From: Cyclobacteriaceae bacterium
GTDB taxonomy: Bacteria; Bacteroidota; Bacteroidia; Cytophagales; Cyclobacteriaceae
Length of the DNA stretch: 64,000 nucleotides
Reading direction: 5' to 3'
Assembly: GCA_965212195.1 (NCBI GenBank)
Contig: CBDBUW010000012.1
Coordinates: 193,566 to 257,565, forward strand
Under the pieces are notes generated by a model. It was given only the letters and a program-made list of their open reading frames with translations, did not search any database and was not told the origin of the DNA. Position 1 is the stretch's first letter; each line of letters begins with the position of its first letter. The position numbers were made by a program, and so were the translations under genes. Shown here one piece after another: positions 8,788-49,342 of the stretch.

Positions 8788-9219
8788 TTAATTTTCCTCT
8801 TCATCCATGATCATCTCAATGGATTGACCATCGGTCTCTAAATTACTTACCAAGCTGTCGATTCTAATTCTGAGCGCATCCCATTCTTCACAACAAGAAG
8901 CCTTTAGTTCCTCTATGGTAGTAAGTAATTGTGACCTTTGTTGCTTCAGACTATCAACGCGTTTCTGGATTCTTTGCACACTGGAATAATGTCCGGATCT
9001 GGTAAGTATTCTGTCAATATTGTGTTCCAGATTCTCGATCCTTGAATTCAAATCTAGTAAATACTTCTCTTGTTCAGCGTCCAAATAATCAGTGGTAGCC
9101 TCTTCGGCCTCCTCAAAGGCTTGCTCCATTTTGTCTCTGGCCTGTTCTTCCTTGGATTGAACATTGCAACTTATTAATACTATGAACCCCAGTAGAATGA
9201 GCATTGATATAGTTTTCAT
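8788..9219 (-). CDS. hypothetical lipoprotein/secreted coiled-coil protein
   Basis: 143 aa with a leader ending in the lipobox-like LISC. The remainder is acidic and heptad-rich. No family recognised. Confidence 0.5.
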   Translation of the reverse strand: MKTISMLILLGFIVLISCNVQSKEEQARDKMEQAFEEAEEATTDYLDAEQEKYLLDLNSRIENLEHNIDRILTRSGHYSSVQRIQKRVDSLKQQRSQLLTTIEELKASCCEEWDALRIRIDSLVSNLETDGQSIEMIMDEEEN

Positions 9220-9528: not shown

Positions 9529-9601
<73 letters not shown>

Positions 9602-9896: not shown

Positions 9897-11180
9897 TCAA
9901 GAGTGTTCACCAGATGTTAACTTAATATTTGTATTTCCCAAATTTTCAGATTCAATTACTAAAAGGCGATTGTACTTGGCCAACCTTTCAGATTGCGTTA
10001 TGGATCCCACTTTAATGAAATCACCGGCCCAACCGGTAGCCAGGTCCGACAACCAATGATCTTCCGTTTCACCGCTACGAGCGCTTACCACGATCTTCCA
10101 TCCGGCATCCCTAGCCAGTGAAAATGCCTGTAAGGCTTCGGTCAGAGTACCAATCTGGTTTACTTTCAATAGTAGACTGTTGGAGGCTTTTTTACTTATG
10201 GCTTTTTCAATACGGATGGGATTGGTGCATAATAAGTCATCTCCTAATACCAATGTACCTTCAGGTACTTTATCCATGAATTGTATCCATCCCTGCCAAT
10301 CGTTTTCCGCCAAACCGTCTTCAATGCTGATAATGGGAAACTGCTGCTTCCATTCCACTAACCGCCCAATCATTTGTTCAGCAGAAAGCTGGGCTCCGTC
10401 TATCAGATAATGACCGCCTTCGTAGAAATGAGAGGCCGCTACGTCCAGGGTAAGCGCAATGTCCTTACCGGGAGTAAAGCCTGCCTGCCGGATACAATTG
10501 ACGGCCTCTTGGATCATTTCTTCGGATGAACTAAAAGAAGGCGCCAGTCCCCCCTCATCTGCCGTTAACAGTCGCATTTGGTAATGAGAAGCCATGCGCT
10601 GCACAGCGGTGTAGTACACGGTATGCATCATTTCCATAGTTTCAGAAATACTGCTGGCCTTTAGCATGACCAACTGTACGTCCTGGATAGACGTTTGATG
10701 TCCTCCGTGTTTACCACCGCTGAAAAGATTGATCATTGGCCGGGGGAGCTTAGGCTCTACCTCTGCTATAGCGCTTAGGTGCTGATAAAGGGGAAGTTTT
10801 TTAGTTCTTGCCTGAGCTCTGCAAAAAGCTAGCGACACTCCCAGAATGGCATTCGCCCCCAATTTTGATTTGTTGGGGGTGCCATCCAACTCCATCAGAG
10901 CTTGATCTAAGTCCTGCTGTGTCTGGAACTCTTGGTTGGACAGATAATCGTTTATTAGGGTATTGACGTTTTCTACCACCCTTCTGCATCCTTTACCGTG
11001 ATAGCGATTATCCTCAAGATCCCTTAGCTCTATGGCTTCGGCGGCTCCTGTAGAGGCACCGGAGGGTACGGAGGCAGTGCCCATAGTACCATCGTTCAAA
11101 TGGCACCAGGCTTGTATTGTGGGCTGCCCTCTGCTGTCTAAAATTTCCAAAGCGGACACCGATTGGATGGCGTTATTCAT
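9897..11180 (-). CDS. enolase-family protein, divergent paralog
   Basis: 427 aa, collinear with enolase. Matching segments are LDSRGQPT, SVPSGASTGAAEAIELRD, TADEGGLAP, LDVAASHFY, ISIEDGLAENDW, GDDLLCTN, LLKVNQIGTLTE, ARSGETED and FIKVGSITQSERLAKYNRLL. The usual SHRSGETED His is Ala, and the QEF Glu is Asp. Confidence 0.85.
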   Translation of the reverse strand: MNNAIQSVSALEILDSRGQPTIQAWCHLNDGTMGTASVPSGASTGAAEAIELRDLEDNRYHGKGCRRVVENVNTLINDYLSNQEFQTQQDLDQALMELDGTPNKSKLGANAILGVSLAFCRAQARTKKLPLYQHLSAIAEVEPKLPRPMINLFSGGKHGGHQTSIQDVQLVMLKASSISETMEMMHTVYYTAVQRMASHYQMRLLTADEGGLAPSFSSSEEMIQEAVNCIRQAGFTPGKDIALTLDVAASHFYEGGHYLIDGAQLSAEQMIGRLVEWKQQFPIISIEDGLAENDWQGWIQFMDKVPEGTLVLGDDLLCTNPIRIEKAISKKASNSLLLKVNQIGTLTEALQAFSLARDAGWKIVVSARSGETEDHWLSDLATGWAGDFIKVGSITQSERLAKYNRLLVIESENLGNTNIKLTSGEHS

Positions 11181-12237
11181 ATAATTTGCTTTTTATGTTA
11201 GTAATTAATTGAGGGACATCTTTAGCAGGCTGCTCCATTAATTCTAAAACCATCCTCGATTGGTTTTCCTGCTGTGGTTTCGTTAAGTACTCCAGGGGAG
11301 ACCGACCTGCTACCCTGGCTAATAGGCAACCCAAGGTGTGAAGTACGGAGTATTCTTCCAGATCTTGGGTTAAATTGTGCTGATGAAGGTGGCCTTGATA
11401 ATGTTGCCAGAAAAGTATGGCCAATTCCAGAAAATTCTCACTTAACTCCTGAAAGTGATGGGCTTTACTGATAAAATGAGTGAGGGCAAAACCAACGTCG
11501 AATGCCGGGTCGCCATAATGCATGACCTCATGATCAATAAGGAACAGCTGTTGATCGGCTATCAAAACGTTTTTAGGACTGTAGTCACCATGAACCAGGG
11601 CTTGTTTGCGCTTAAGGGTCGCATGAATAAGCGGTTCCAGTAGCTTTTTGGATTCAGGAATCTTATTGAGGACAAATCTATAGTAGGGTTCCAGTCTTAG
11701 AGATTCAAAAAACGAGGAGTCCCTGAACTCTCCTTTTATTTCGGGATAGAAGTTAGACGCGTTATGGATTTTAGCCAGTAACCGGCCGAACTCAATGGCA
11801 TGGGCAGGGACTAGCTTACCTCGCATGAGGTTCGCTTTCCAATTAGTATGTGGCATTCTCACCGCTGCCATTATTAAAATATGGTGCTCCTGGCTCTCGT
11901 GAAGGAAATCCGGCACATTTTCTGGAATAATCCTTTTAAGCCATCGCAGGCCCAGGGCTTCTATGTGTATGCGGTGCGGTGAACTAAACCAATCGCTTTT
12001 TACCCTTAGTTTTGGCAATGCTTGTTTTGCCACCATGTTGTTCCCCGAAGAAGGTGCTATTAGGATGGTCCGATTGGAAACTCCTCCCTCCAACTTGATT
12101 ATTTGAGGAGTTTCCTCCCCAGGCAACAATCCCTTTTCTTTCAGAAACTGTATTATTTCGGATGAGTGCTCAATGTTCATGGATACCAGGGCCTCAGGAC
12201 TTTCATTTAAGATTTCTTGACTAGCTATGAATTGCAA
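11173..12237 (-). CDS. protein-kinase-fold phosphotransferase (APH / 5-methylthioribose-kinase-like)
   Basis: 354 aa. The catalytic loop LVHGDYSPKNVLI and the metal loop LIDHEVMHYGDPAFDVGF resemble MtnK/APH. The stop overlaps the enolase-like start by 8 nt. The ORF-track start is TTG 12237, and an alternative ATG is at 12180. Confidence 0.7.
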   Translation of the reverse strand: MQFIASQEILNESPEALVSMNIEHSSEIIQFLKEKGLLPGEETPQIIKLEGGVSNRTILIAPSSGNNMVAKQALPKLRVKSDWFSSPHRIHIEALGLRWLKRIIPENVPDFLHESQEHHILIMAAVRMPHTNWKANLMRGKLVPAHAIEFGRLLAKIHNASNFYPEIKGEFRDSSFFESLRLEPYYRFVLNKIPESKKLLEPLIHATLKRKQALVHGDYSPKNVLIADQQLFLIDHEVMHYGDPAFDVGFALTHFISKAHHFQELSENFLELAILFWQHYQGHLHQHNLTQDLEEYSVLHTLGCLLARVAGRSPLEYLTKPQQENQSRMVLELMEQPAKDVPQLITNIKSKLYE

Positions 12238-12372
12238 AGGTAAAATAAGGTGATAATTGGATAAAATTCACCATCCGGCATTTATGATAAAACTTATATA
12301 TTGTAATAATTGCTGTGGTATTCCTTGAAATCCTAAGCTGTCGATTAATTCTGGAAAAAGTAATTGTAAAAC

Positions 12373-13491
12373 ATGTCAATAATTTCAAGAAGTGCAGTGG
12401 CCCGGGGGGATGGCACTTTCGCCATAGATGAAGTAACCCTGGCGTCCCCGGAATCAGACGAAGTTATAGTAAAGATCAAAGCCGCCGGGGTATGTCATAC
12501 GGATTACGACTCGTTATCCTGGGGCAAGCCCATAGTCATGGGACATGAAGGAGCAGGGGTGGTAGAGGCCGTGGGCCCGGGAATTACCGAATTTAGCAGC
12601 GGCGATCAGGTCATACTAAACTGGGCCACCCCCTGTATGAACTGCTTTCAATGCCAGCAAGGCAATCAACACATTTGCGAGAATAACTCTCCGGTGGTAG
12701 CCGGAAGCAATGGGCATACCCCCGGGCATGCAAGTTTTGCAGGCACATTATGGAAGGGGGAACCCATCGAGCGCTCTTTCAATATTGGTACCCTTAGCGA
12801 CTATACGCTGGTTAAGCAGTCTGCCTTGGTCAAAATAAAAGATGAAGACCTGAACTTTTCAGCCGCTAGCATAATAAGTTGTGGGGTAATGACAGGTTAC
12901 GGATCAGTGGTCAACGCTGCTAAACTGGTAGCTGGCAGTTCAGCAGTGGTTTTAGGTTGCGGGGGTGTGGGTTTGAATGTGATCCAGGGCGCCAGAATCT
13001 CCAGAGCGGCTATGATCGTGGCGGTGGATACTAACGCAGAAAAACTCGAACTGGCTAAACAGTTGGGAGCCACCCATACCATTTTGGCGGACAAAAACGA
13101 CCGTGGATTGGAACAGACCGCGGAAAAGGTGAGAAATCTGTGCCATGGTAGGGGTGCGGACTATGCTTTTGAATGTACCGCCGTGCCGGCATTGGGTGCT
13201 GCCCCGTTGGCCATGATTAGAAATGCCGGGACTGCAGTTCAAGTAAGTGGAATCGAGGAAGAAATTACCATTGATATGAGCCTGTTTGAATGGGATAAGA
13301 TCTATATCAACCCACTTTACGGAAAGTGCCGCCCGCAGATTGATTTTCCTGAACTTATGCGATTATATAAAGAGGGAGCTCTTAAATTAGAAGAAATGAT
13401 CACTCGTGAATATTCGCTTGATAATCTTCAGCAGGCTTTTGATGATATGATTGGGGGTAAAAATGCCAAGGGAGTGGTAACATTTGAATAA
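12373..13491 (+). CDS. zinc-dependent alcohol dehydrogenase (class III / S-(hydroxymethyl)glutathione dehydrogenase-like)
   Basis: 372 aa with GVCHTD, GHEGAGVVEAVG, the structural-zinc Cys cluster CMNCFQCQQGNQHIC and the GCGGVG Rossmann motif. Confidence 0.8.
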   Translation: MSIISRSAVARGDGTFAIDEVTLASPESDEVIVKIKAAGVCHTDYDSLSWGKPIVMGHEGAGVVEAVGPGITEFSSGDQVILNWATPCMNCFQCQQGNQHICENNSPVVAGSNGHTPGHASFAGTLWKGEPIERSFNIGTLSDYTLVKQSALVKIKDEDLNFSAASIISCGVMTGYGSVVNAAKLVAGSSAVVLGCGGVGLNVIQGARISRAAMIVAVDTNAEKLELAKQLGATHTILADKNDRGLEQTAEKVRNLCHGRGADYAFECTAVPALGAAPLAMIRNAGTAVQVSGIEEEITIDMSLFEWDKIYINPLYGKCRPQIDFPELMRLYKEGALKLEEMITREYSLDNLQQAFDDMIGGKNAKGVVTFE

Positions 13492-13510: not shown

Positions 13511-14320
13511 GTGAGTAGCTTTAGAACAGTACAATTATCAGATAGGAACTATGAGAACGCCGGGTTGCGCTTCCTGACAGTTAAGTCAAACCACTTAAAG
13601 GGACGAGGAGATATCTGTGTTTATGTACCTGAACTAGAGATAGATATAACAAATATTCCCGTATATATTCTGTTACATGGAGTTTATGGAAGTGCCTGGG
13701 CCTGGGCTATGAAAGGAGGAGCCCATATAACTGCGCAAAACTTAATTTCTAATGGAGAGATAAGACCGGCCATTGTGGCCATGCCTTCCGATGGACTCTG
13801 GGGTGATGGTTCAGGATATTTGACACATCAAGATAGAAATTTTGCCCAATGGATCGTATCGGACGTACCTGCTGCAATTATTGAAAATATTTCCGGCGCC
13901 GATATACATTCTCCCATTTGTATTGGTGGCTTTTCCATGGGTGGGTATGGTGCGTTGGTATTGGGGTCCCAATTCCCGAATAAATTTAAAGCTATTTCGG
14001 CGCATAGCTCCATTACCAAATTTGAACAAATGGCCGGTTTCGTGGAAGAACCTCTGGGATCTTTCAAAATTCAAGGACTTGAGAACGACGTTATCGATTA
14101 TGTGAGCAGAAAACCCCATGAATTGCCCCCGTTACGATTTGATTGCGGGATCCAAGATGATTTGTTGCAGGCCAATAGGGAGCTACATCGCCAATTGGGG
14201 GATCTTAAGATCGAGCATCAATACCATGAATTTGAAGGCGGACATGAATGGCCCTACTGGCAAAAGAACCTGGAGCACAGCTTGCGTTTTTTTGATAAGC
14301 AGGTTACATCTTCGCTATAG
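13511..14320 (+). CDS. esterase family alpha/beta hydrolase (esterase D / S-formylglutathione hydrolase-like)
   Basis: 269 aa with a GTG start and the nucleophile elbow GFSMGGYGA. It sits directly downstream of the class III-like ADH. Confidence 0.6.
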   Translation: MSSFRTVQLSDRNYENAGLRFLTVKSNHLKGRGDICVYVPELEIDITNIPVYILLHGVYGSAWAWAMKGGAHITAQNLISNGEIRPAIVAMPSDGLWGDGSGYLTHQDRNFAQWIVSDVPAAIIENISGADIHSPICIGGFSMGGYGALVLGSQFPNKFKAISAHSSITKFEQMAGFVEEPLGSFKIQGLENDVIDYVSRKPHELPPLRFDCGIQDDLLQANRELHRQLGDLKIEHQYHEFEGGHEWPYWQKNLEHSLRFFDKQVTSSL

Positions 14321-14433: not shown

Positions 14434-15585
14434 ATGAACAAACACCAAATACTTGCTGAGTATGCCAATTATTTTACCGGGACTCCATTACTGGTCAACG
14501 CACCGGGCAGAATTAACTTGATTGGTGAACATACCGACTATAATCATGGGTTTGTAATGCCTGCCGCTATTAACAAGAGTTTGTTTCTAGCCATGAATAA
14601 GTCTGATCAACCGGATACCGTTAAGGTTCGTTCATACGATTATGACCAGGAAGAAACCTTCATTTTAGGCACCTCACCACGCCCTTTCAACTCCTGGAGA
14701 AGCTACGTTCAAGCCATTTTTCAGGAGTTGGAGGCCAGATCTAAGCCTCTATCGGGATTCAACTGTGTTTTCGGCAGCGATATACCGGTGGGGGCGGGCA
14801 TGTCATCCTCCGCGGCCTTATGCTGCGGTTTCATAAGTGGCGTGAACAGGTTGTTCAATTGGGAGTTATCTAAATTGGAGATTGCCCAAATCGCGCAAGC
14901 TGCAGAGCACCGAATAGGCGCTCATGTGGGTTTAATGGATCAGTTTGCCGTGATGCATGGTAAAAAAGACCATGTGATCCAGCTGGACTGCCTGGATTAT
15001 AGCTATGAATATAATCCTCTGAAGCTAAAAGATCTTTCACTGGTCTTGATTAACAGCAATGTAAAGCATGAATTGGTAGACTCTGAATATAACGATCGCC
15101 GTGCCAGTTGCGAGAAGGCGCTGAGCCAGCTGCAACAGTTACGTCCTGAGATCAATACCCTTAGGGATGTGAATATGAACGACCTTGAAAATGCTGACTT
15201 TCTAGACCCTACTGATTTGAAAAGGGTGCAATTCGTACTTCATGAGAACTATCGGGTTAAACTAACTTCCCAGGCCTTGAAAGGGGGTCGCTTCCAAGAG
15301 GTAGGGAAGTTGTTATATCAATCACACCAGGGATTAAGCCAGGAGTACCAGGTAAGCTGTCCGGAGTTGGATCTGTTGGTTGACTTGACCAAACAAGAAC
15401 AGGGAGTGTTGGGTGCTCGTATGATGGGAGGAGGCTTCGGGGGCTGCTCCATTAACTTGGTTCGCCATAATGAACTGGACGATACCATTTTACGAATAAT
15501 GGAACAGTATGAACAGCAAACCAAAATCACGCCGGAATCCTATATGGTTTCAATTGAAGATGGGGTTAAGCTGTTCGAAGACTAG
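14434..15585 (+). CDS. galK: galactokinase
   Basis: It has the NAPGRINLIGEHTDYNHGFVMPAAI signature and the GHMP ATP motif PVGAGMSSSAA. Length is 383 aa. Confidence 0.92.
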   Translation: MNKHQILAEYANYFTGTPLLVNAPGRINLIGEHTDYNHGFVMPAAINKSLFLAMNKSDQPDTVKVRSYDYDQEETFILGTSPRPFNSWRSYVQAIFQELEARSKPLSGFNCVFGSDIPVGAGMSSSAALCCGFISGVNRLFNWELSKLEIAQIAQAAEHRIGAHVGLMDQFAVMHGKKDHVIQLDCLDYSYEYNPLKLKDLSLVLINSNVKHELVDSEYNDRRASCEKALSQLQQLRPEINTLRDVNMNDLENADFLDPTDLKRVQFVLHENYRVKLTSQALKGGRFQEVGKLLYQSHQGLSQEYQVSCPELDLLVDLTKQEQGVLGARMMGGGFGGCSINLVRHNELDDTILRIMEQYEQQTKITPESYMVSIEDGVKLFED

Positions 15586-15596
15586 TGGTGAAAACC

Positions 15597-15938
15597 TTAT
15601 GGCTGGAGTTTGAATATCTTTTCCATAACTACCCATTTTTCACCTTTATCCGCCCAGGGTAGTAATTGTTGGAATTGACTCATCAACTTCTCCCATTCCT
15701 GTACTCTGGGATTATCTGCATCCATACGGGCTTTTCTAAAGAAATCAAAGGTTTCGTCAACTTCCATGATCATAAAAAGTCGGTTACCCGTTAGGTAGAT
15801 CTCCATATCCAGGATCCCGGCATCTTTGATGCTTTCGGTAATCTCCGGCCAGGTATTTCCCGCAGCATGATATCGCTTATACTCAGCAATCAGCTCTGGG
15901 TTATCTTTCAAATCACAGGCTAGGCAATACCTTCTCAT
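15597..15938 (-). CDS. L-rhamnose mutarotase (RhaM/DUF718) family protein
   Basis: 113 aa small ferredoxin-like protein, MRRYCLACDLKDNPELIAEYKRYH...WPEI. Its start overlaps the fucP stop by 4 nt (ATGA). Confidence 0.7.
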   Translation of the reverse strand: MRRYCLACDLKDNPELIAEYKRYHAAGNTWPEITESIKDAGILDMEIYLTGNRLFMIMEVDETFDFFRKARMDADNPRVQEWEKLMSQFQQLLPWADKGEKWVVMEKIFKLQP

Positions 15939-17269
15939 AGCTGGGGATCTGATTTTAAGACCATCATTCTATACGTCCGGTATCCATAAGCAGCCACCAG
16001 CACAAAGCATATTAAAGGCAGCGTAAAGGAGATATTAACCTCAGGAACACCTAATATCCTGACATCGGCGTAGCCGTTGCCCCCAATATCCAGAATCGCT
16101 CCTTGTAATACCGGCATTATAGCTCCTCCTACGATAGCCATTACCAAAAATGCCGCTCCATACTTGGCGTCTTCACCAACACCGGTCAGGGAAATGCCGT
16201 ATATGGTAGGAAACATAACCGACATGCACAAAGAAATACCTACCAATGAATAGAGGCCCCACATACCTTGAATGAAAATGGCTCCCATGGTAAAAGTGAT
16301 GGCGCCAAATGCAAAGTACATTAATAGCTTACCGGAGTCGAAAAATTTTAACAGGTAGGTGCCAACCCAGCGACCCACCAGGAACAGCCCCAGGGCTACG
16401 TAAGCGTAACTAACAGCACTTTGATTGTTGATCCCCAGGGTTTCAGCATATTGATAGATATAGGTCCAGCACATGATTTGAGCACCTACATAGAACATCT
16501 GTGCGAATACTCCTTCTACGAACCTTTTATTCTTAAACAGCCGCTTCAGGGAATTTGCCACAGAATCATTCTGCTCAGAATGTTTTTCAGGCATTCTGAC
16601 CAAGGAAATCATTACCAGCATGAACAGTACAAATAATCCCAGTATTACGTAAGGGTTGCGAATTACTGCAAGATCTGCGGTACGTACTGCCGCTTTAGCT
16701 GTTTCGGAAAGCGTATCATATATGGGGTTTCCCTGGGCATCGAGGTCATCGGATTGCAATGAACCCAGAATGAATGTCTGTGCCACGAAAAGTCCAGTTA
16801 GGGCTCCAATTGGGTTAAACGCCTGTGCCAGATTTAATCTCCTAGTAGCGGTACTTTCATGTCCCATCGACAAAATAAATGGATTGGCGGTAGTTTCCAG
16901 GAAAGCCAAACCGAAGGTAAGGATATACAATGCGGCCAAGAAAAAGCCGAACTCCGCATAGGCTGCAGCCGGATAGAACAACAGCGCACCCAGTGCATAC
17001 AGCAGGAGTCCCAGTAGGACGCCTTTCTTATAGCTGTACTTTTTCACAAACATTGCTGCTGGGAAGGCCATGGTAAAATATCCCCCGTAAAAAGCCATTT
17101 GTACCCAAGAGGCCTGAGTGTTGTTCAGTTCAAGCACTTTTTTAAAGGCCGATACCATAGGATTGGTGATATCATTGGCGAAACCCCATAATGCAAACAG
17201 TGAAGTAATTAAAATGAAAGGGATCAGTATCTGTTTGGATACCACTGGGGTTTCATTGGTGTGTTTCAT
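15935..17269 (-). CDS. fucP: L-fucose:H+ symporter family MFS permease
   Basis: 444 aa, collinear with E. coli FucP. Matching segments are LFALWGFANDITNPMV, WVQMAFYGGYF, LLYALGALLFYPAA, LETTANPF and RLNLAQAFNPIGA. Confidence 0.8.
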   Translation of the reverse strand: MKHTNETPVVSKQILIPFILITSLFALWGFANDITNPMVSAFKKVLELNNTQASWVQMAFYGGYFTMAFPAAMFVKKYSYKKGVLLGLLLYALGALLFYPAAAYAEFGFFLAALYILTFGLAFLETTANPFILSMGHESTATRRLNLAQAFNPIGALTGLFVAQTFILGSLQSDDLDAQGNPIYDTLSETAKAAVRTADLAVIRNPYVILGLFVLFMLVMISLVRMPEKHSEQNDSVANSLKRLFKNKRFVEGVFAQMFYVGAQIMCWTYIYQYAETLGINNQSAVSYAYVALGLFLVGRWVGTYLLKFFDSGKLLMYFAFGAITFTMGAIFIQGMWGLYSLVGISLCMSVMFPTIYGISLTGVGEDAKYGAAFLVMAIVGGAIMPVLQGAILDIGGNGYADVRILGVPEVNISFTLPLICFVLVAAYGYRTYRMMVLKSDPQL

Positions 17270-17398
17270 GGATGAATACCGGGGCTTTTGGTTTAAGATG
17301 TAGTCATTCTTTTTTGCAAGGGGAGGTATCTTGTGCTATTAAGATCTTGCTTTTGGAAAACAACATAGCATTTTATTGATGATTCTACCAGATTAATA

Positions 17399-18412
17399 CT
17401 ATAATTCAATCATTGCTTTTATAACCCCGCTCTCAGGATTCACCCATTCTTCGAAATGTGCGATCATCTGGTCAAACGGAACCGTATGGGTAATGAAAGC
17501 TTCTGTGGGAAACGCTTGTCTTTCCAGCATTTTGATGACCAATTCAAAGTCTTCCCGGGTGGCATTACGACTGCACATCAGAGTAGCTTCTTTAGCATGG
17601 ATATAGGGGTGATTGAAGGTTAGCTGGTCCTTTGACAGTCCCACAAGAATATATCGTCCGCCATGGGCCATAAACTGAGGTCCCGCTTCCAGCGCTTGTC
17701 GGTTACCCGTGGCGTCAAAAACGGCGGTAGCAAGATCCTCATTAGTGATCTCTTGTACTTTTGCTAAGGGATCGCTGGCTACATTTATGGTATGATTTAC
17801 ACCGACAACCTCTTGTGCAAATTGTAGTCGTTGATGGTTGATGTCCATGGCAATTACTTTTGCTCCCATCATCTGGGCCAAAGCCATAATTCCCAATCCA
17901 ATGGGACCGGCACCCATTACTGCGATAGACTCTCCCGCCTGCAGGTTGCTTCTTCTCAAGGCGTGTGCCCCAATGGACAATGGTTCGACAATGGCCATCT
18001 CCTGGTAGGAGAGTTGGGGTGCCGGGATTAGAAAGTCATGGTTTACGGCAATTTTTTCCTGCATCCCGCCATCAGTATGTACGCCCAACACCTCAAGGTG
18101 CTGGCAACAGTTGGTCTTGCCCTGGCGGCAGGCAATGCATGTGCCGCAACTCATATAAGGCATTACCACCACCTTGTCGCCGGCTTTGAGAGTAGGATGC
18201 CCCTCGATTTCTAATATTTGGGCGGCCAGCTCATGCCCCAAAATGCGAGGGTAGGTAAAATACGCCTGATTGCCGGTGTAGGCATGGAGGTCGGTGCCGC
18301 AAATACCTATGTTCTTTATTTGAAGCAGCGCCTCATGAGGTGAATTTGTAGGCACCTCCTTCTGCTTCAGCTTAAACTCACCGGGTTTTTCACAAACAAT
18401 AAAATTCATCAT
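17399..18412 (-). CDS. zinc-dependent medium-chain dehydrogenase (polyol / sugar-acid dehydrogenase-like)
   Basis: It has GICGTDLH, GHE, the structural-zinc cluster CGTCIACRQGKTNCC and GAGPIGLG. The ORF track extends to 18454, but the conserved MDR N-terminus begins at MMNFIVCEKPG (ATG 18412 or 18409). Confidence 0.8.
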   Translation of the reverse strand: MMNFIVCEKPGEFKLKQKEVPTNSPHEALLQIKNIGICGTDLHAYTGNQAYFTYPRILGHELAAQILEIEGHPTLKAGDKVVVMPYMSCGTCIACRQGKTNCCQHLEVLGVHTDGGMQEKIAVNHDFLIPAPQLSYQEMAIVEPLSIGAHALRRSNLQAGESIAVMGAGPIGLGIMALAQMMGAKVIAMDINHQRLQFAQEVVGVNHTINVASDPLAKVQEITNEDLATAVFDATGNRQALEAGPQFMAHGGRYILVGLSKDQLTFNHPYIHAKEATLMCSRNATREDFELVIKMLERQAFPTEAFITHTVPFDQMIAHFEEWVNPESGVIKAMIEL

Positions 18413-18533
18413 GGGCCGATAGTGAAAATTTGCCATGCCTGGTGTATTGGGCAAAATCCCTTTACCCCAATCTTAAAATACTCTAATATTCCTCACGATA
18501 TGAAACAAATACCGGAAATGAAAAATCTAACCA

Positions 18534-39238: not shown

Positions 39239-40270
39239 TTAGGACTTATATGGTTTAACACCTATGGAAAATGCCCGGGCAGGATTATGCACTAAAATCT
39301 GATCGATATCCTGAGAGGTAATTCCTTCCTTTTTTAGTGCGGGGATCAAATATTCGAATACTGCGGTGTAGCCTCTAAATTCTCCGCCGTTTGTTTCACC
39401 GGGAGAGTACCATCCCGCATCATGGGACAGCAAAATGTGATCCAAATATCCGCTTTGCTTAAGATTTAGGATCATATCCACATACTTTGAAGCGTTACTC
39501 AGGCTTACATTATCCAGACTGATCCAAGCTCCTTGGGAGGCCGCTTTACTATAAGTGGAAAGGTCGTCTTCATTTTGTGCATGTGTCCAGATGAATGCCC
39601 GAGGGTGCACATCATTCTCCTTAAGGATCTCGATTTGTTCAAGGGCCGGTTCTGCCAATCCGGTGTGCGAGGCGATAGTCAGTCCTGTCTTTAAGTGGGT
39701 AAGCGCAGCCGCCTTAATAAGTTTTTTGTGAAATTCTGAAAGGGGACCCGGGCTTACCCCGGTTTTAATGAATCCCGGTCTTATATTGGTGCTCTGCATA
39801 CCAAATTCGAAATCTTTAATCCAACGGTCGGCCAATTGAGTAGCGGATTCTTGGTAGGCGTGCTTGGGAATATGCCTGTTGTTATTGGCTCCGTAGTAAC
39901 CGGTATTGGTGACTATATGCATATCGGTAACGGAAGCTAACTTCTTTAATAACTTCACGTCTTTGCCGATAAAACTGGGAGTAAACTCAAAGAACGTTTT
40001 GCATCCATACTTTTTCAGTTCCAATAAATGAGGTATAACTACCTCCAGGACCTCATCATGATCCCACCAAATGTCACCTGCAGCTCCCTGAAAATCCACC
40101 AATACATGTTCATGGGTAAGGGTTAATCCCATATCCGCTGCCTTTACTTTCCCATTAACCGACATGATAGATCCTGCCTTTCCGTTAACAGCGAAACCAT
40201 TTGCTCCCCACATAAAACCTGCTAAGCTCAGCAAGCTGCGCTTAAGGAATATTCTTCGGTTACTGATCAT
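39239..40270 (-). CDS. phosphotriesterase-related (PTE/PHP family) amidohydrolase, Tat-exported
   Basis: 343 aa with the Tat leader MISNRRIFLKRSLLSLAGF. It has the LTHEHVLV H-x-H motif and the HTG, WTHAQ and LLSHDAGW metal-ligand motifs of the PTE family. Confidence 0.8.
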   Translation of the reverse strand: MISNRRIFLKRSLLSLAGFMWGANGFAVNGKAGSIMSVNGKVKAADMGLTLTHEHVLVDFQGAAGDIWWDHDEVLEVVIPHLLELKKYGCKTFFEFTPSFIGKDVKLLKKLASVTDMHIVTNTGYYGANNNRHIPKHAYQESATQLADRWIKDFEFGMQSTNIRPGFIKTGVSPGPLSEFHKKLIKAAALTHLKTGLTIASHTGLAEPALEQIEILKENDVHPRAFIWTHAQNEDDLSTYSKAASQGAWISLDNVSLSNASKYVDMILNLKQSGYLDHILLSHDAGWYSPGETNGGEFRGYTAVFEYLIPALKKEGITSQDIDQILVHNPARAFSIGVKPYKS

Positions 40271-40366
40271 TTTTAGTTTTGAAATAAAAGAGCTAATCCA
40301 ATATAAAGATTTGTAAAGACTTCCACTCCTGGTTAAATTATATCTTGTTCGTTAATCTCTTTGCTT

Positions 40367-41761
40367 ATGAAAAATTCACAAAATAAATCGACCCGCAGAA
40401 CCTTCCTTAACACCCTTGGTTTAAGTGGTCTTAGCTTGGCAGGAATGGCCTTTGCACCCATTGAAGAACAATTGGAATATACCACTCAGAAAGTGAATCG
40501 CAGTTCCAGTCCTTCAGAACTTAAGATCACCGATATGAGGATTGCAGAGATCAGTGGGGTGGTGTTTAGAACGCCTATAGTAAGGATCTATACCAATCAG
40601 GGTATTGTGGGTCACGGCGATGTGAGGGATGGAGCTGCCAAGCAATATGCGTTATTCTTGAAAAGTAGGTTGTTGGGAGAAAACCCCTGTAACGTGGAGC
40701 GTTTGTTCAAAAAGGTCAGTCAGTTTGGTCATCACGGTCGTCAGGGTGGCGGAGTTTCCGGTGTGGAGATGGCGCTTTGGGACATAGTAGGGAAGGCCTA
40801 TGGCGTCCCGGTCTATCAATTGTTAGGAGGGAAGTACCGCGACCAGGTCAGATTGTACTGCGATACCACCATCAGCAAAGATCCGCAGGAGTATGCCCAG
40901 CGCATGCAGGCCAGGATCGATAAAGGGTATACCGCTTTGAAAATGGACATTGGTACTAACTTATTGAAGGATATTCCCGGTACGCTCATCAATGCCCCGG
41001 ACGGGCAGCTCAAACCGTACCAGCATGAGTATCGAGGTTATAACCTCACCAAACACCCCTTCACCCGGGTACAAATAACTGAAAAAGGCGTGAACAAGCT
41101 TTGTGAGTTTTTGGAAGTGATGCGTAACCAAGTAGGCTATGAGATCCCTATGGGCACTGACCATTGGGGCCACTTTGGGGTAAACGAAGCCATTAAAATA
41201 GCCCGTGCCGTGGAGAAGTATAACCTGGCTTATATCGAGGATATCATACCCTGGGAATATACCGATCAATGGAAAGAGATCACGCTTTCCACTACCACAC
41301 CAACCCAAACCGGTGAGGATATCTACCGTTTGGAGGGAGGATTCCAAGAGTTGATTGAAAAGAGGGCGGTGGATATCGTGCACCCCGATCCAAACACAGC
41401 CGGCGGTATTCTGGAAACCAAGCGTATCGGTGATTACGCTTCGGCTCATGGCGTAGGTTTTATGCAGCATCATGCCGCCGGGCCAGTTTCTTTTCTAGGA
41501 GCAGTTCACTCGGCAGCGGCTACCGAGAATTTTATGTGGTTAGAGCATCATGCCGTGGATAATCCGGAATTCGAAGACTTGGTGCAGGGTATAGAAAAAC
41601 CACTGGTGCAGGACGGGTATGTAAAAGTGCCGGAGTCACCAGGATTAGGCGTTGAATTAAATGAAGAAGTGGTTAAAGAGTTTTTGATTAAAGGAGAGAA
41701 ATTATTTGCACCTACTCCGGAGTGGAATGAGATCCGTTCCTGGGACCGACTATGGAGTTAG
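40367..41761 (+). CDS. mandelate racemase/muconate lactonizing enzyme family (enolase superfamily) protein, Tat leader
   Basis: The Tat leader is STRRTFLNTLGLSGLSLAGMAFA. The barrel motifs are ALKMDIG, GTDHWGHF, AYIEDI, TGEDIY and DIVHPDPNTAGGILE. The ORF track starts at TTG 40361, and the first ATG is at 40367. Confidence 0.8.
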   Translation: MKNSQNKSTRRTFLNTLGLSGLSLAGMAFAPIEEQLEYTTQKVNRSSSPSELKITDMRIAEISGVVFRTPIVRIYTNQGIVGHGDVRDGAAKQYALFLKSRLLGENPCNVERLFKKVSQFGHHGRQGGGVSGVEMALWDIVGKAYGVPVYQLLGGKYRDQVRLYCDTTISKDPQEYAQRMQARIDKGYTALKMDIGTNLLKDIPGTLINAPDGQLKPYQHEYRGYNLTKHPFTRVQITEKGVNKLCEFLEVMRNQVGYEIPMGTDHWGHFGVNEAIKIARAVEKYNLAYIEDIIPWEYTDQWKEITLSTTTPTQTGEDIYRLEGGFQELIEKRAVDIVHPDPNTAGGILETKRIGDYASAHGVGFMQHHAAGPVSFLGAVHSAAATENFMWLEHHAVDNPEFEDLVQGIEKPLVQDGYVKVPESPGLGVELNEEVVKEFLIKGEKLFAPTPEWNEIRSWDRLWS

Positions 41762-41810: not shown

Positions 41811-42716
41811 ATGCGCCTCCTCCAGTGTGCGTTTCTTATTATATTTTTCAATCCAGGACTGATAGCTCAGGGGGTTCCCGCCAGTGGTGACTTTCAATTT
41901 ACCATGAAAGCGGAGGCCCGGATATATATTGGCTTTAAGGGCGCTGTGGGATTTTCTGCGAATCTAGCCGCTGGGGTTACCCAGCGATTAGGCAATTTTC
42001 AGTGGGGAGGCACCGCGGCGATCAACCTCTATCAAGGGGGGATCGGTGCAGTACTGTCCTCTCAAAACCGCCAATCCCGGGGCCGTAACCAGTTTAATAC
42101 GGATATAATATTGTCTGGATCAGCCACTTTAGGAGACGGTCGACACGATACCCTGCCATTATTGACTTTCAACCATGCTTATCCGGCTGTGATATTACAA
42201 GGCTATAAAAAGTCTATTACGCATGCACAAAATTTCGTATTTAACTTTAGAGGGCGCCATCAGCGGTTAGGCACTTATGGGATCAAATTGTATAATGTAT
42301 ACTTGCAACTTTACAACGACGTAGATATCTTTTTGGGGGATGCTGATGATCGTTTTTGGACAGGGGGCGGTAGCATTTCGGTTTATCTTACTAATAGTTA
42401 CTATATAACTTTTGGTACTGATGTCTTCACCGGAGAACGCAACCCTTTGCGGAGTTCACATCCGCAAAATCCACCTCGTGGCTATCCTTATGAAGATTAT
42501 GATCAAGCCCCGGGAGATCAGCAACTGAATATTGGCAAGTTATTTCTGCAGTTGAATAGCTTTGAACATAATTTCAATTTTGAAATCTCACGTACAGGAC
42601 GACAGGATATGGCCTTTCAAAATATCATCCATAAGTGGTATGGAACGCCCTATTTTGAGTCATCGGCTGTTAACCAATGGAATGTAGGCCTGGGTATTCA
42701 ACATTATGGTGAGTAA
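41811..42716 (+). CDS. hypothetical secreted protein
   Basis: 301 aa with a signal peptide (FLIIFFNPGLIAQ). It is rich in Gly/Asn/Tyr and beta-rich. No family recognised with confidence. Confidence 0.5.
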   Translation: MRLLQCAFLIIFFNPGLIAQGVPASGDFQFTMKAEARIYIGFKGAVGFSANLAAGVTQRLGNFQWGGTAAINLYQGGIGAVLSSQNRQSRGRNQFNTDIILSGSATLGDGRHDTLPLLTFNHAYPAVILQGYKKSITHAQNFVFNFRGRHQRLGTYGIKLYNVYLQLYNDVDIFLGDADDRFWTGGGSISVYLTNSYYITFGTDVFTGERNPLRSSHPQNPPRGYPYEDYDQAPGDQQLNIGKLFLQLNSFEHNFNFEISRTGRQDMAFQNIIHKWYGTPYFESSAVNQWNVGLGIQHYGE

Positions 42717-46360: not shown

Positions 46361-47320
46361 CTAATTGACCCGGTGGCTGACGGTTTTGCCCTTGAAATAC
46401 TGGACGATATTCTGTGCAGCCAACACTGCCATTTGATCACGGGCCTCTAGGGTTGCCGATCCAATGTGTGGAGTGACCACTACATTTTCCATTCCTAGCA
46501 GGGGATTATTGGGCTTCATGGGTTCAGGATCAGATACATCCAGGCCCGCACCCCAAATCTCTCCTGATTTCAGCGCGGCAATCAGATCCTGTTCTTGATG
46601 TATAGGGCCCCTGGCGGTATTTACGAAAATGGCGCTGGGTTTCATTTGCTCAAAGGCCTGTTTTCCAAAGATCCCTTTGGTTTCGTCGGTTAAGGCGCAA
46701 TGTACCGAAAGTACATCGCTGGAGGTAAGCAGCGTATGGAAATCAACTTTCTTGGCTCCTAGAAGAGTTTCGGCAGCTTTGTTATGGCCTCGGTTGCAAT
46801 AAATAATCCCCATCCCATAAGCTCCCACACACCTCTTAGCCATCTCCAGTCCAATGCGCCCCAATCCATAGATCCCTAAGGTTTTCCCTTTTAATTCCTG
46901 ACCTAGATGGGCTTGGGGTTGAAAAAAACCCCATTGGCCGTTGATTATGGATTTGTGCAAATAGCATAGCTTACGCGATGCCGCCAGCATTAACATAAAG
47001 GAAATATCGGCAGTGGCATCGCTCATTGCTTCCGGAGCATTTCCCACTATTATACCAGCATCGGTTGCAGCTCCAACATCAATATTATCATATCCGGCGC
47101 CGTACTGCGAGATGATTTCCAGGTGTAGGTTATCTTGTATAAAGGCCGCATCGATGTGATCCATGGCCGTACTGAGCAGCCCCTTGCAGGATTTTGCTTT
47201 TTGCGAAAGTTGACCGGGTGTTAATGGTTGCACCTCTTTCCATACTTCCACTTCCAATCCCGCTGCTTCTAACAGATTGATGCCCACTTGAGGTATGTCT
47301 AAAGTCACCAATACTTTCAT
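46361..47320 (-). CDS. D-isomer-specific 2-hydroxyacid dehydrogenase (glyoxylate/hydroxypyruvate reductase-like)
   Basis: It has the GLGRIGLEMAKR NAD motif, the NTARG..VD motif and TPHIGSAT. ATG 47320 (MKVLVTLD) is preferred over the TTG at 47329. Confidence 0.85.
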   Translation of the reverse strand: MKVLVTLDIPQVGINLLEAAGLEVEVWKEVQPLTPGQLSQKAKSCKGLLSTAMDHIDAAFIQDNLHLEIISQYGAGYDNIDVGAATDAGIIVGNAPEAMSDATADISFMLMLAASRKLCYLHKSIINGQWGFFQPQAHLGQELKGKTLGIYGLGRIGLEMAKRCVGAYGMGIIYCNRGHNKAAETLLGAKKVDFHTLLTSSDVLSVHCALTDETKGIFGKQAFEQMKPSAIFVNTARGPIHQEQDLIAALKSGEIWGAGLDVSDPEPMKPNNPLLGMENVVVTPHIGSATLEARDQMAVLAAQNIVQYFKGKTVSHRVN

Positions 47321-47436
47321 TAGAACCAATGTACTACTTTTTTGAAATTAAGTTCTGGCTGTTGATCACTCATTAACTGCGCTGCCCTAAAAAACCGAAA
47401 TCTAGTTGACAATTAGCGGAATTCTACGCTCCTTGT

Positions 47437-47872: not shown

Positions 47873-49342
47873 ATGAATATATCAGTCGATTACCAACAAT
47901 TGCTTCAAAACCAAGCTTTCATAGGAGGCCGCTGGATATCCGCTAGTGACGGAAAGGTATTTGAGGTAAAGAATCCATTTGACGGAGAAATCATTGAATG
48001 TGTACCGGACATGGGGGTGTCGGACACCCGTTCAGCTATCCAAGAAGCAGAAAAAGCCTTTAAGCAGTGGAGTAAAACTACCGCTAGCCAACGATCCCGG
48101 ATATTACGAAAGTGGTTCGATTTGCAACTTAAGCACAAAGAGGCTCTGGCAGTTTTACTCACCTTGGAACAAGGCAAACCCCTAAAAGAGGCCAAAGGGG
48201 AAATTATTTTTGGGGCGGGGTTTGTGGAATGGTTTGCAGAAGAGGCCAAACGGGCCTACGGTGATGTAATACCTACACACAGTCGCGATAAGAGAGTGGT
48301 AACCATTAAGCAACCCATAGGAGTAGTGGCGGCTATAACGCCATGGAACTTTCCCAGCGCTATGATCACCCGCAAAGTGGCTCCGGCATTAGCGGGTGGA
48401 TGTACTGTGGTCATCAAGCCAGCAGAGGACACACCCTTGTCGGCTCTGGCCCTGGCGGTACTGGCAGAAGAGGCAGGTTTTCCACCCGGAGTTATCAATG
48501 TTATTACCACCAATCGACCTGAGGAAGTGGGGTTGGAGCTCAGTAAAAACCCCGTAGTGAGGAAATTGTCGTTTACAGGCTCCACAGCTGTGGGTAAGCT
48601 GCTACTGGAACAGAGTGCCAGTACCGTAAAAAAAGTATCCCTGGAATTGGGCGGAAATGCGCCATTTATCGTTTTTAAGGACGCGGATGTTGATGCTGCA
48701 GTAGCCGGTGCCATCACTTCAAAGTACCGCAATGCCGGGCAGACCTGTATCTGTGCCAATCGCTTGTTTGCCCATGAAAAGGTATATGAGGAGTTTACCG
48801 ATAAGCTTAGTACCGCGGCCAAAACCCAAACCCTGGGATCGGGATTGCAAGAAGGGACTAACATTGGTCCTATGATCAACGGGGAGGCTCTACAAAAAAT
48901 GGAATCCCTGGTAGCAGACGCCATTGAAAAAGGCGCCAAGGTGTTAACCGGGGGAGAAGTATACGACATTTCAAGCGGGCACAATTTCTTTCAGCCCACG
49001 GTGCTAACGGAGGTGAATACCAGCATGGCTATAAGTGAGGAAGAGATCTTCGGGCCAGTAGCTCCGGTGTTCTCATTTAGTGATGAGGAAGAAGTTATTG
49101 CCATGGCCAACAATACTCCCTATGGCCTGGCCGCCTATTTTTATGGCAACGACTACCGCCAGATCTGGCGCGTGGCCGAGGCACTGGAGTACGGTATGAT
49201 CGGTATTAACACCGGTATGATCTCCACGGTAGTAGCTCCTTTTGGAGGACTCAAGGAAAGCGGAATTGGCCGGGAAGGCTCCAAATATGGCATTGATGAA
49301 TACCTGGAGTTGAAGTACCTGTGCTTTGGTGATATCGAGTGA
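47873..49342 (+). CDS. gabD: NAD(P)-dependent succinate-semialdehyde dehydrogenase
   Basis: 489 aa, near-collinear with E. coli GabD. Matching segments are TLEQGKPLKEAKGEI, IKQPIGVVAAITPWNFPSAMITRK, VSLELGGNAPFIVF, NAGQTCICANR and PFGGLKESGIGREGSKYGIDEYLELKY. Confidence 0.85.
   Translation: MNISVDYQQLLQNQAFIGGRWISASDGKVFEVKNPFDGEIIECVPDMGVSDTRSAIQEAEKAFKQWSKTTASQRSRILRKWFDLQLKHKEALAVLLTLEQGKPLKEAKGEIIFGAGFVEWFAEEAKRAYGDVIPTHSRDKRVVTIKQPIGVVAAITPWNFPSAMITRKVAPALAGGCTVVIKPAEDTPLSALALAVLAEEAGFPPGVINVITTNRPEEVGLELSKNPVVRKLSFTGSTAVGKLLLEQSASTVKKVSLELGGNAPFIVFKDADVDAAVAGAITSKYRNAGQTCICANRLFAHEKVYEEFTDKLSTAAKTQTLGSGLQEGTNIGPMINGEALQKMESLVADAIEKGAKVLTGGEVYDISSGHNFFQPTVLTEVNTSMAISEEEIFGPVAPVFSFSDEEEVIAMANNTPYGLAAYFYGNDYRQIWRVAEALEYGMIGINTGMISTVVAPFGGLKESGIGREGSKYGIDEYLELKYLCFGDIE

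Follow-up and report, generated by a model that had tools for sequence, protein, structure and literature searches.

Enolase is taken to be isofunctional, converting D-2-phosphoglycerate to phosphoenolpyruvate (PEP). Its accepted base is Lys345 and its accepted acid Glu211, and in the solved Chloroflexus enolase the equivalent of Glu168 is among the residues that bind 2-phosphoglycerate (2-PGA) and PEP (PMC4450660). The known glycerate kinases fall into three classes, none of which has the APH fold (Kehrer et al., 2007; PMC2063504). A 64,000-nucleotide stretch of the genome of a Cyclobacteriaceae bacterium (assembly GCA_965212195.1, contig CBDBUW010000012.1, positions 193,566–257,565; hereafter, the window) carries a gene pair consisting of a small-molecule kinase with the predicted fold of 5-methylthioribose kinase (MtnK) and, directly downstream, a variant enolase. 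We propose, with a probability of about 0.55, that the kinase phosphorylates the 2-hydroxyl of a glycerate-like 2,3-dihydroxy acid and that the variant enolase dehydrates the product, the substrate differing from D-2-phosphoglycerate at C3 or in configuration. The two genes, to which an earlier note made from the sequence alone had drawn attention, are arranged as follows.

9897–11180, minus strand: variant enolase of 427 aa, a member of the kinase-linked Asp168/Ala373 clade (Enolase_N and Enolase_C domains)
11173–12180, minus strand: MtnK-fold small-molecule kinase, 335 aa when read from the ATG at 12180 (PF01636, APH)
11173–11180, minus strand: 8-nt overlap ATGAATAA between kinase stop and enolase start (direct sequence reading)
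12181–12372, no strand assigned: divergent intergenic region with the likely promoter of the pair (−7-like motif)

The open reading frames (ORFs) given in the earlier note, 427 aa at 9897–11180 and 354 aa at 11173–12237, were reproduced. The longer kinase frame, which reaches a TTG at 12237 on the minus strand, is real, but the ATG at 12180 is the most likely start codon, since homologues of the kinase begin there and a −7 box overlies the TTG. This box, TAcctTTG at about 12241–12234 of the minus strand, resembles by eye the −7 box of Bacteroidota (consensus TAnnTTTG). Rfam showed no riboswitch upstream of the pair that might have given a clue to the ligand. The kinase gene ends with AAA TTA TAT GAA TAA (K L Y E stop) and the enolase gene begins with ATG AAT AAC; the resulting 8-nt overlap, as previously noted, can be read directly in the sequence and suggests translational coupling.

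The pairing, which the earlier note had regarded as worth following through other genomes, was found across phyla and also within single fused proteins. A search with the kinase alignment retrieved relatives in the genomes of at least 576 species, and an exhaustive search of 1.84 billion representative proteins returned 574 kinase clusters (50% identity) at E ≤ 1e-30. The 80 best kinase loci, to which the survey of gene order refers, span about ten phyla and include those of two cultured strains, Desulfofustis glycolicus DSM 9705 and Dictyobacter kobayashii Uno11. In 72 of these 80 loci, the kinase gene was followed immediately by a variant enolase gene of the same orientation, and most of the exceptions were contig ends. 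The paired loci belonged to Chloroflexota, Acidobacteriota, Planctomycetota, Verrucomicrobiota, Deinococcota, Actinomycetota, Desulfobacterota, Armatimonadota, and Bacteroidota. Two genomes had the genes unlinked, with both still present. Stop and start codons overlapped in 50 of 68 pairs, most often by 8, 14, or 4 nt, as judged with a start-codon heuristic. A domain scan detected APH, Enolase_N, and Enolase_C on single polypeptides (P0345, 770 aa, and P0311), both of which bear the Asp168/Ala373 signature described below. Because of this gene fusion, the overlaps, and the co-occurrence of the two genes, it is very likely that kinase and variant enolase act in a shared pathway. As a separate observation, the frame of the enolase paralog in a Caldilineaceae genome (G011:C6:294692–297763) holds one in-frame TAA.

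Within Cyclobacteriaceae, a homologue of the kinase occurred in only 7 of 81 genera, and the pair was intact in each of them. This patchy distribution, together with the nesting of the window enolase and those of other Cyclobacteriaceae inside a clade mostly labelled Chloroflexota, is the reason why we read the pair as an accessory, horizontally mobile function. Full-text searches of the literature yielded neither a characterisation of the kinase–enolase pair nor a pathway built on it, in line with the previous impression that none had been described. The candidate prior descriptions proved unrelated: a paper on 'enolase paralogs' of SAR202 deals with MR/MLE members, and papers on CpgD and on L-threonate 3-dehydrogenase concern other systems.

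The window enolase is an enolase-fold protein, as its motifs had indicated. It matched PF03952 (173 bits), PF00113 (261 bits), and, over its full length, solved enolases (E 1e-107), and its score of 448 bits on TIGR01060 lies above the equivalog cut-off of 300. Residues were compared in an alignment of 137 relatives and 13 canonical enolases in yeast Eno1 numbering; 13 of 13 anchor residues of the Eno1 ruler sequence fell on their published numbers. The metal, lysine, and phosphate residues are kept: S39, H159, Q167, E211, D246, E295, D320, K345, R374, S375, and K396 were present in the window enolase and in 137/137 paralogs. The two substitutions first seen by eye, of the invariant His by Ala and of a Glu by Asp, were borne out by HMMER alignment with solved enolases ('vvsarsgeted' vs. 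'iishrsgeted' and 'siqdvqlv' vs. 'dfqefmiv'), so that SARSGETED replaces SHRSGETED and IQDVQ replaces (F/I)QEFM. Position 168 was Asp and position 373 Ala (or Val) in 100% of the 137 paralogs; Glu168 and His373 were invariant among the aligned canonical enolases. Both substitutions were also found in all 120 best database matches (58–91% identity) and in the enolases adjoining kinase homologues in the 80 genomes surveyed; distant pairs from Cyclobacteriaceae combined Asp168 with Ala or Gly at 373.

A five-residue signature, N155S/G, E168D, G209A, H373A/V/G, and T397V/I/L, is common to three sub-clades and reads S155, D168, A209, A373, and V397 in the window enolase. These positions presumably lie on neighbouring strand ends of the barrel, around C3 and its hydroxyl. 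In a maximum-likelihood tree, one branch parted the canonical enolases from the paralogs (SH-aLRT 93), and the main paralog group sat on a long stem with full support. Scores on TIGR01060 were cleanly bimodal, at 626–696 bits for canonical enolases and 413–456 bits for kinase-linked paralogs. Since the cut-off of that model is 300, the whole paralog clade is automatically named 'phosphopyruvate hydratase', and its kinase partner is entered at NCBI as 'phosphotransferase'.

The residue pattern also bears on whether the paralog is a dehydratase at all. The enolase superfamily includes racemases and epimerases, and here the machinery for proton abstraction is intact, whereas two residues that help the hydroxyl to leave are altered; the paralog might thus epimerise a 2-phospho-acid through its enolate, for example, or serve as a non-catalytic partner or regulator of the kinase. 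We consider this very improbable. The general acid Glu211 is invariant, as are the two Mg sites with Ser39 in the loop of the second metal; strict conservation over about ten phyla argues for full catalysis; and the opposite face shows no obvious second base.

A dehydratase acting on the ordinary enolase substrate has more in its favour. The kinase could be a fourth, unrecognised class of D-glycerate 2-kinase and the paralog an ordinary isozyme converting D-2-phosphoglycerate to PEP; channelling or separate regulation might be what keeps the two linked, at the end of pathways leading to D-glycerate. Such a pair would be fully redundant in the genomes that carry it. The canonical eno sought elsewhere in the window genome is present on another contig (696 bits on TIGR01060), and each of 12 other pair-bearing genomes has one canonical eno (626–693 bits) and one paralog (413–456 bits). 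A glycerate kinase was likewise found in 13/13 of these genomes, of class I in seven and of class II (MOFRL) in six; that of the window genome is a class I enzyme (G000:C5). The idea that the pair supplies a missing glycerate kinase or enolase was consequently rejected, as both are already there in all 13. A bypass of the dihydroxy-acid dehydratase IlvD that is independent of iron-sulfur clusters was unsupported: ilvD scored above its cut-off in 13/13 pair-bearing genomes, leaving no phyletic complementarity, and such a role, though conceivable as a backup, clashes with the catabolic neighbours described below. The replacement of Glu168 and His373 in 100% of the clade, plus three pocket changes conserved since its origin, also speaks against an ordinary isozyme. 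In yeast enolase, E168Q is said to lose about 10^5-fold activity (work of Poyner et al. from 1996), and His373 mutants are reportedly impaired (Brewer et al., in 1997). Because a glycerate kinase and a canonical enolase coexist with the pair in 13/13 genomes, and because the five substitutions lie beside the residues that handle C3, plain conversion of D-glycerate to PEP appears an unlikely role.

The kinase matched PF01636 (APH) at 54 bits. The earlier note had likened it to 5-methylthioribose kinase, and MtnK is indeed both its best NCBIfam match (TIGR01767, 67.8 bits vs. a cut-off of 275) and its closest fold. An AlphaFold (AF2) model of the kinase (pLDDT 90) gave MtnK structures 2pyw and 2pun as best matches, with a TM-score of 0.80 at 17–19% identity, and the top 15 Foldseek hits were MtnK chains with TM-scores of 0.73–0.80, normalised to query length. 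Conserved motifs of the family were GGVSNR, KQALxKLRV, HGDYSPKN, DxE, and ARVxGRSPLEY, among which HGDYSPKN and D-H-E were invariant in 20 aligned members. The kinase matched APH-type families only, and neither glycerate-kinase family tried (class I, TIGR00045; class II, MOFRL, PF05161). Orthology with MtnK or DrdK was rejected, considering the score far below the cut-off, the different catalytic loop, and the lack of salvage neighbours; neither an MtnA/DrdI isomerase nor an aldolase was present among the window neighbours or the partner families of the 72 paired loci. The 5-deoxy or 5-thio sugars once considered as substrates find no support, given the same lack of mtnA/drdI-type neighbours and the enolase machinery, which requires a carboxylic acid. 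Separately, protein P0326 (730 aa) joins an N-terminal FGGY-family carbohydrate kinase domain to a kinase of this MtnK-fold family, a hint of a sugar or polyol context.

The genes transcribed together with the pair in other genomes point to sugar-acid catabolism. Counting same-strand operon partners and leaving out redundant Phototrophicaceae, the recurrent families were short-chain dehydrogenases/reductases (SDRs; 9), MR/MLE acid-sugar dehydratases (6), D-2-hydroxyacid dehydrogenases of the GhrB/glyoxylate-reductase-like type (6), FAH-family hydrolases (3), and zinc-dependent alcohol dehydrogenases (Zn-ADHs; 3), along with GntR/LacI regulators and ABC permeases. In Dictyobacter kobayashii, the operon consists of GntR, an FAH protein resembling 2,4-didehydro-3-deoxy-rhamnonate hydrolase, a Zn-ADH, a galactonate-dehydratase-like MR/MLE protein, the kinase, and the enolase. 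In Phototrophicaceae-type Chloroflexota, it consists of an SDR, a cis-3-hydroxy-L-proline-dehydratase-like MR/MLE protein, the kinase, and the enolase, with an adjoining ABC sugar transporter. In Caldilineaceae genome G011, a paralog of the IlvD/Edd dehydratase family (473 bits, below the ilvD cut-off) follows directly after the enolase paralog. In our reading, this set is the toolkit of oxidative, non-phosphorylative sugar-acid routes, which would end with pyruvate being split off and a short hydroxy-acid left over; a hexonate would leave D- or L-glycerate, depending on the sugar series. About a quarter of the pairs stand alone, and no pyruvate-kinase-like or phosphatase partner recurred among the partner families, for which reasons the input and output of the pair are probably close to central metabolism. 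In Phototrophicaceae-type Chloroflexota (L003–L005 and 22 of the 80 loci, e.g., L024:8864–9967), the gene immediately preceding the kinase gene scored 627 bits on the cis-3-hydroxy-L-proline dehydratase equivalog NF043002 (cut-off 500). The cis-3-hydroxy-L-proline-dehydratase-like MR/MLE protein was dismissed as an obligate partner, being almost wholly confined to Phototrophicaceae-type Chloroflexota.

Part of this context favours the D-glycerate branch introduced above. The D-2-hydroxyacid dehydrogenases, which resemble GhrB and hydroxypyruvate reductase, stand directly upstream of the pair in several lineages; the FAH protein, dehydrogenase, and MR/MLE protein of Dictyobacter would together make pyruvate and glycerate from a hexonate; and the stand-alone pairs imply common metabolites as input and output. 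Taken with the redundancy and the altered pocket, a dedicated D-glycerate branch still seems unlikely, though it is the alternative to be taken most seriously.

The private kinase and private enolase, in spite of a resident glycerate kinase and eno, would also be explained if the pair made PEP from a three-carbon acid closed to the housekeeping enzymes, either L-glycerate via L-2-phosphoglycerate or a 3-substituted lactate such as 3-sulfolactate, which would give PEP and sulfite. Two genes would then suffice with no downstream enzyme, the changes would be expected to cluster around C3 and the acid catalyst, and the sugar-acid context could supply L-glyceraldehyde or L-glycerate. This is nevertheless improbable. 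The recurrent dehydrogenase partner is D-specific, with a 2R product; neither a sulfite exporter or oxidase nor an L-specific dehydrogenase was found among the 25 commonest partner families; and the substitutions would presumably enlarge the pocket and raise its hydrophobicity, with no base moved closer as inversion of configuration would seem to need.

Under our preferred proposal of phosphorylation at the 2-hydroxyl followed by dehydration of a C3- or stereo-variant acid, we infer the following course. The MtnK-fold kinase would transfer phosphate from a nucleotide triphosphate to the hydroxyl at C2 of a small, glycerate-like 2,3-dihydroxy carboxylic acid. The resulting 2-phospho-acid would be bound by the variant enolase at its unchanged two-Mg2+ sites, with the carboxylate at Lys396/Gln167 and the phosphate at Arg374/Ser375/His159. 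Lys345 would take the C2 proton, and the C3 leaving group would be expelled with the help of Glu211, giving an enol phosphate, either PEP or a 3-substituted analogue of it. The housekeeping pyruvate kinase could turn this into a 2-keto acid, with ATP regained. The module would be an accessory, horizontally mobile unit placed last in the oxidative (non-phosphorylative) breakdown of sugars and sugar acids, disposing of the hydroxy-acid fragment that remains once pyruvate is split off, and the stand-alone quarter of the pairs fits a module that begins and ends with ordinary metabolites. Because the wall of the C3 pocket is remodelled in every member, the substrate is probably not ordinary D-2-phosphoglycerate, but rather a relative of it differing at C3 or in stereochemistry. 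A more far-reaching version, which we consider somewhat less likely than not, is that this clade would be the first within the enolase family proper to have something other than D-2-phosphoglycerate as its physiological substrate, a new, MtnK-derived acid kinase making a 2-phospho-acid that the housekeeping enolase cannot use. Candidates would be L-2-phosphoglycerate or a C3-substituted analogue, for example a 2-phospho-tetronate or 2-phospho-2,3-dihydroxybutanoate, with PEP or a PEP analogue as the product.

Several points weigh against a substrate other than D-2-phosphoglycerate and the catabolic role assigned to the pair. The paralog passes the NCBI enolase cut-off (448 vs. 300 bits on TIGR01060) and keeps every first-shell catalytic residue, and may therefore be an enolase isozyme, as the D-glycerate branch would have it. 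The D-2-hydroxyacid dehydrogenase neighbours and the diketo-hydrolase logic of the hexonate operon point to plain D-glycerate as the input. The partners include no enzyme for a PEP analogue, such as a pyruvate-kinase paralog or a phosphatase, which favours PEP as the product. The assignment of the five signature positions to the C3 side is itself presumptive, and in the window the pair is without a catabolic partner in its own operon. The surrounding features of the window are as follows.

8788–9219, minus strand: coiled-coil protein of 143 aa, N-terminus signal-like, match to the sll1863 family of stress proteins below threshold
9529–9601, minus strand: tRNA gene (Rfam, 70 bits)
12373–13491, plus strand: Zn-ADH of the class-III-like group, divergent from the pair (family profile matches)
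13511–14320, plus strand: PF00756 esterase, divergent from the pair (family profile matches)
14434–18454: galK (plus strand), convergent with genes for a rhaM mutarotase, FucP, and a Zn-MDR dehydrogenase
39239–41761: PTE-family (lactonase-like) gene (minus strand), divergent from a gene for a 466-aa MR/MLE dehydratase
41811–42716: 301-aa ORF with a weak match to Ntox23 (bacterial toxin 23), directly after the MR/MLE gene, then a 166-aa ORF with no family match
46361–47329, minus strand: D-2-hydroxyacid dehydrogenase, GhrB/glyoxylate-reductase-like
47873–49342, plus strand: aldehyde dehydrogenase of the succinate-semialdehyde-dehydrogenase family (TIGR01780, 707 bits)

A gap of 295 nt separates the enolase gene from the tRNA gene that follows it, and the operon therefore consists of kinase and enolase only. 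The divergent Zn-ADH and esterase were present as the earlier note had described them. They still adjoin the pair in a 91%-identical relative (L118/L119), but neither a 75%-identical one (L120) nor any of the 80 distant loci has this arrangement; they are local neighbours outside the conserved unit. A link to formaldehyde handling through these two enzymes, for instance by way of 4-hydroxy-2-oxobutanoate, was rejected as a general explanation, since the arrangement does not persist at 75% identity or occur elsewhere.

Further away, the window holds genes that could belong to sugar-acid metabolism. The cluster at 14434–18454 showed neither a fucose isomerase nor a fucose kinase beside FucP (545 bits on the fucP equivalog), which fits an oxidative 6-deoxyhexose route. 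The MR/MLE protein at 39239–41761 resembles galactonate and mannonate dehydratases and scored under all cut-offs; with the adjacent PTE-family gene, it looks like a lactonase and dehydratase pair for some sugar acid. Elsewhere in the genome are a cluster of SDR and FAH genes and another of TIM-isomerase, MR/MLE, and 2-hydroxyacid dehydrogenase genes. The 301-aa and 166-aa ORFs may form a toxin–immunity pair, or the Ntox23 match may be spurious. The 143-aa coiled-coil protein is unrelated to the kinase–enolase pair.

The textbook view of enolase as isofunctional would have to be altered for a clade so large and ancient, with its remodelled pocket and obligate kinase partner. Metabolic reconstructions of the carriers include the paralog as a second glycolytic enolase, which it probably is not, and naming based on TIGR01060 would amount to a systematic annotation error if the function differs. 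Sugar-acid catabolism would gain a new step, and the MtnK fold a new kinase specificity. If the far-reaching version is true, it would provide an ATP-neutral, iron-sulfur-independent route by which stranded hydroxy-acid fragments of L-series or deoxy sugar acids enter central metabolism. In soil and sea, the carriers among Chloroflexota, Acidobacteriota, Planctomycetota, Verrucomicrobiota, and Bacteroidota rank as major degraders of complex organic matter.

Compared with canonical enolase (EC 4.2.1.11; 3tqp from Coxiella, 4rop from Synechococcus, and yeast Eno1), the variant has the same two-domain fold, Mg2+ sites, and catalytic residues, but it scores about 200–250 bits lower on TIGR01060, forms a separate branch, carries the signature at positions 155, 168, 209, 373, and 397, is linked or fused to a kinase, and was never the sole enolase in 13 genomes. 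MtnK (2pyw, 2olc/2pun) and its relative 5-deoxyribose kinase (DrdK) are closest to the kinase in fold (TM-score 0.80) and have the KQALP..R, HGD, and DxE motifs in common with it. Their catalytic loop, however, is HGDLHTGS, whereas that of the present kinase is HGDYSPKN, of the APH/choline-kinase type with Asn; the isomerase and aldolase partners are lacking here, and the partner enzyme needs a carboxylate substrate. Glycerate kinases of class I (GarK/GlxK), II (MOFRL), and III, acting with enolase (PMC2063504), follow the same logic as that proposed here, from acid to 2-phospho-acid to enol phosphate. They differ in that their folds are unrelated to that of the present kinase, and the enolase partner here is a dedicated variant. 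The non-phosphorylative Entner–Doudoroff and glycerate pathways are alike in their placement at the end of sugar-acid breakdown. The PhpH-type enolase homologue of phosphinothricin biosynthesis forms carboxyphosphonoenolpyruvate and sets a precedent, in that a paralog of the enolase family acts on an analogue of 2-phosphoglycerate. In PhpH, it is the phosphoryl side of the substrate that varies, within a secondary-metabolite cluster, whereas in the kinase-linked enolases it would be the C3 side, in catabolic contexts.

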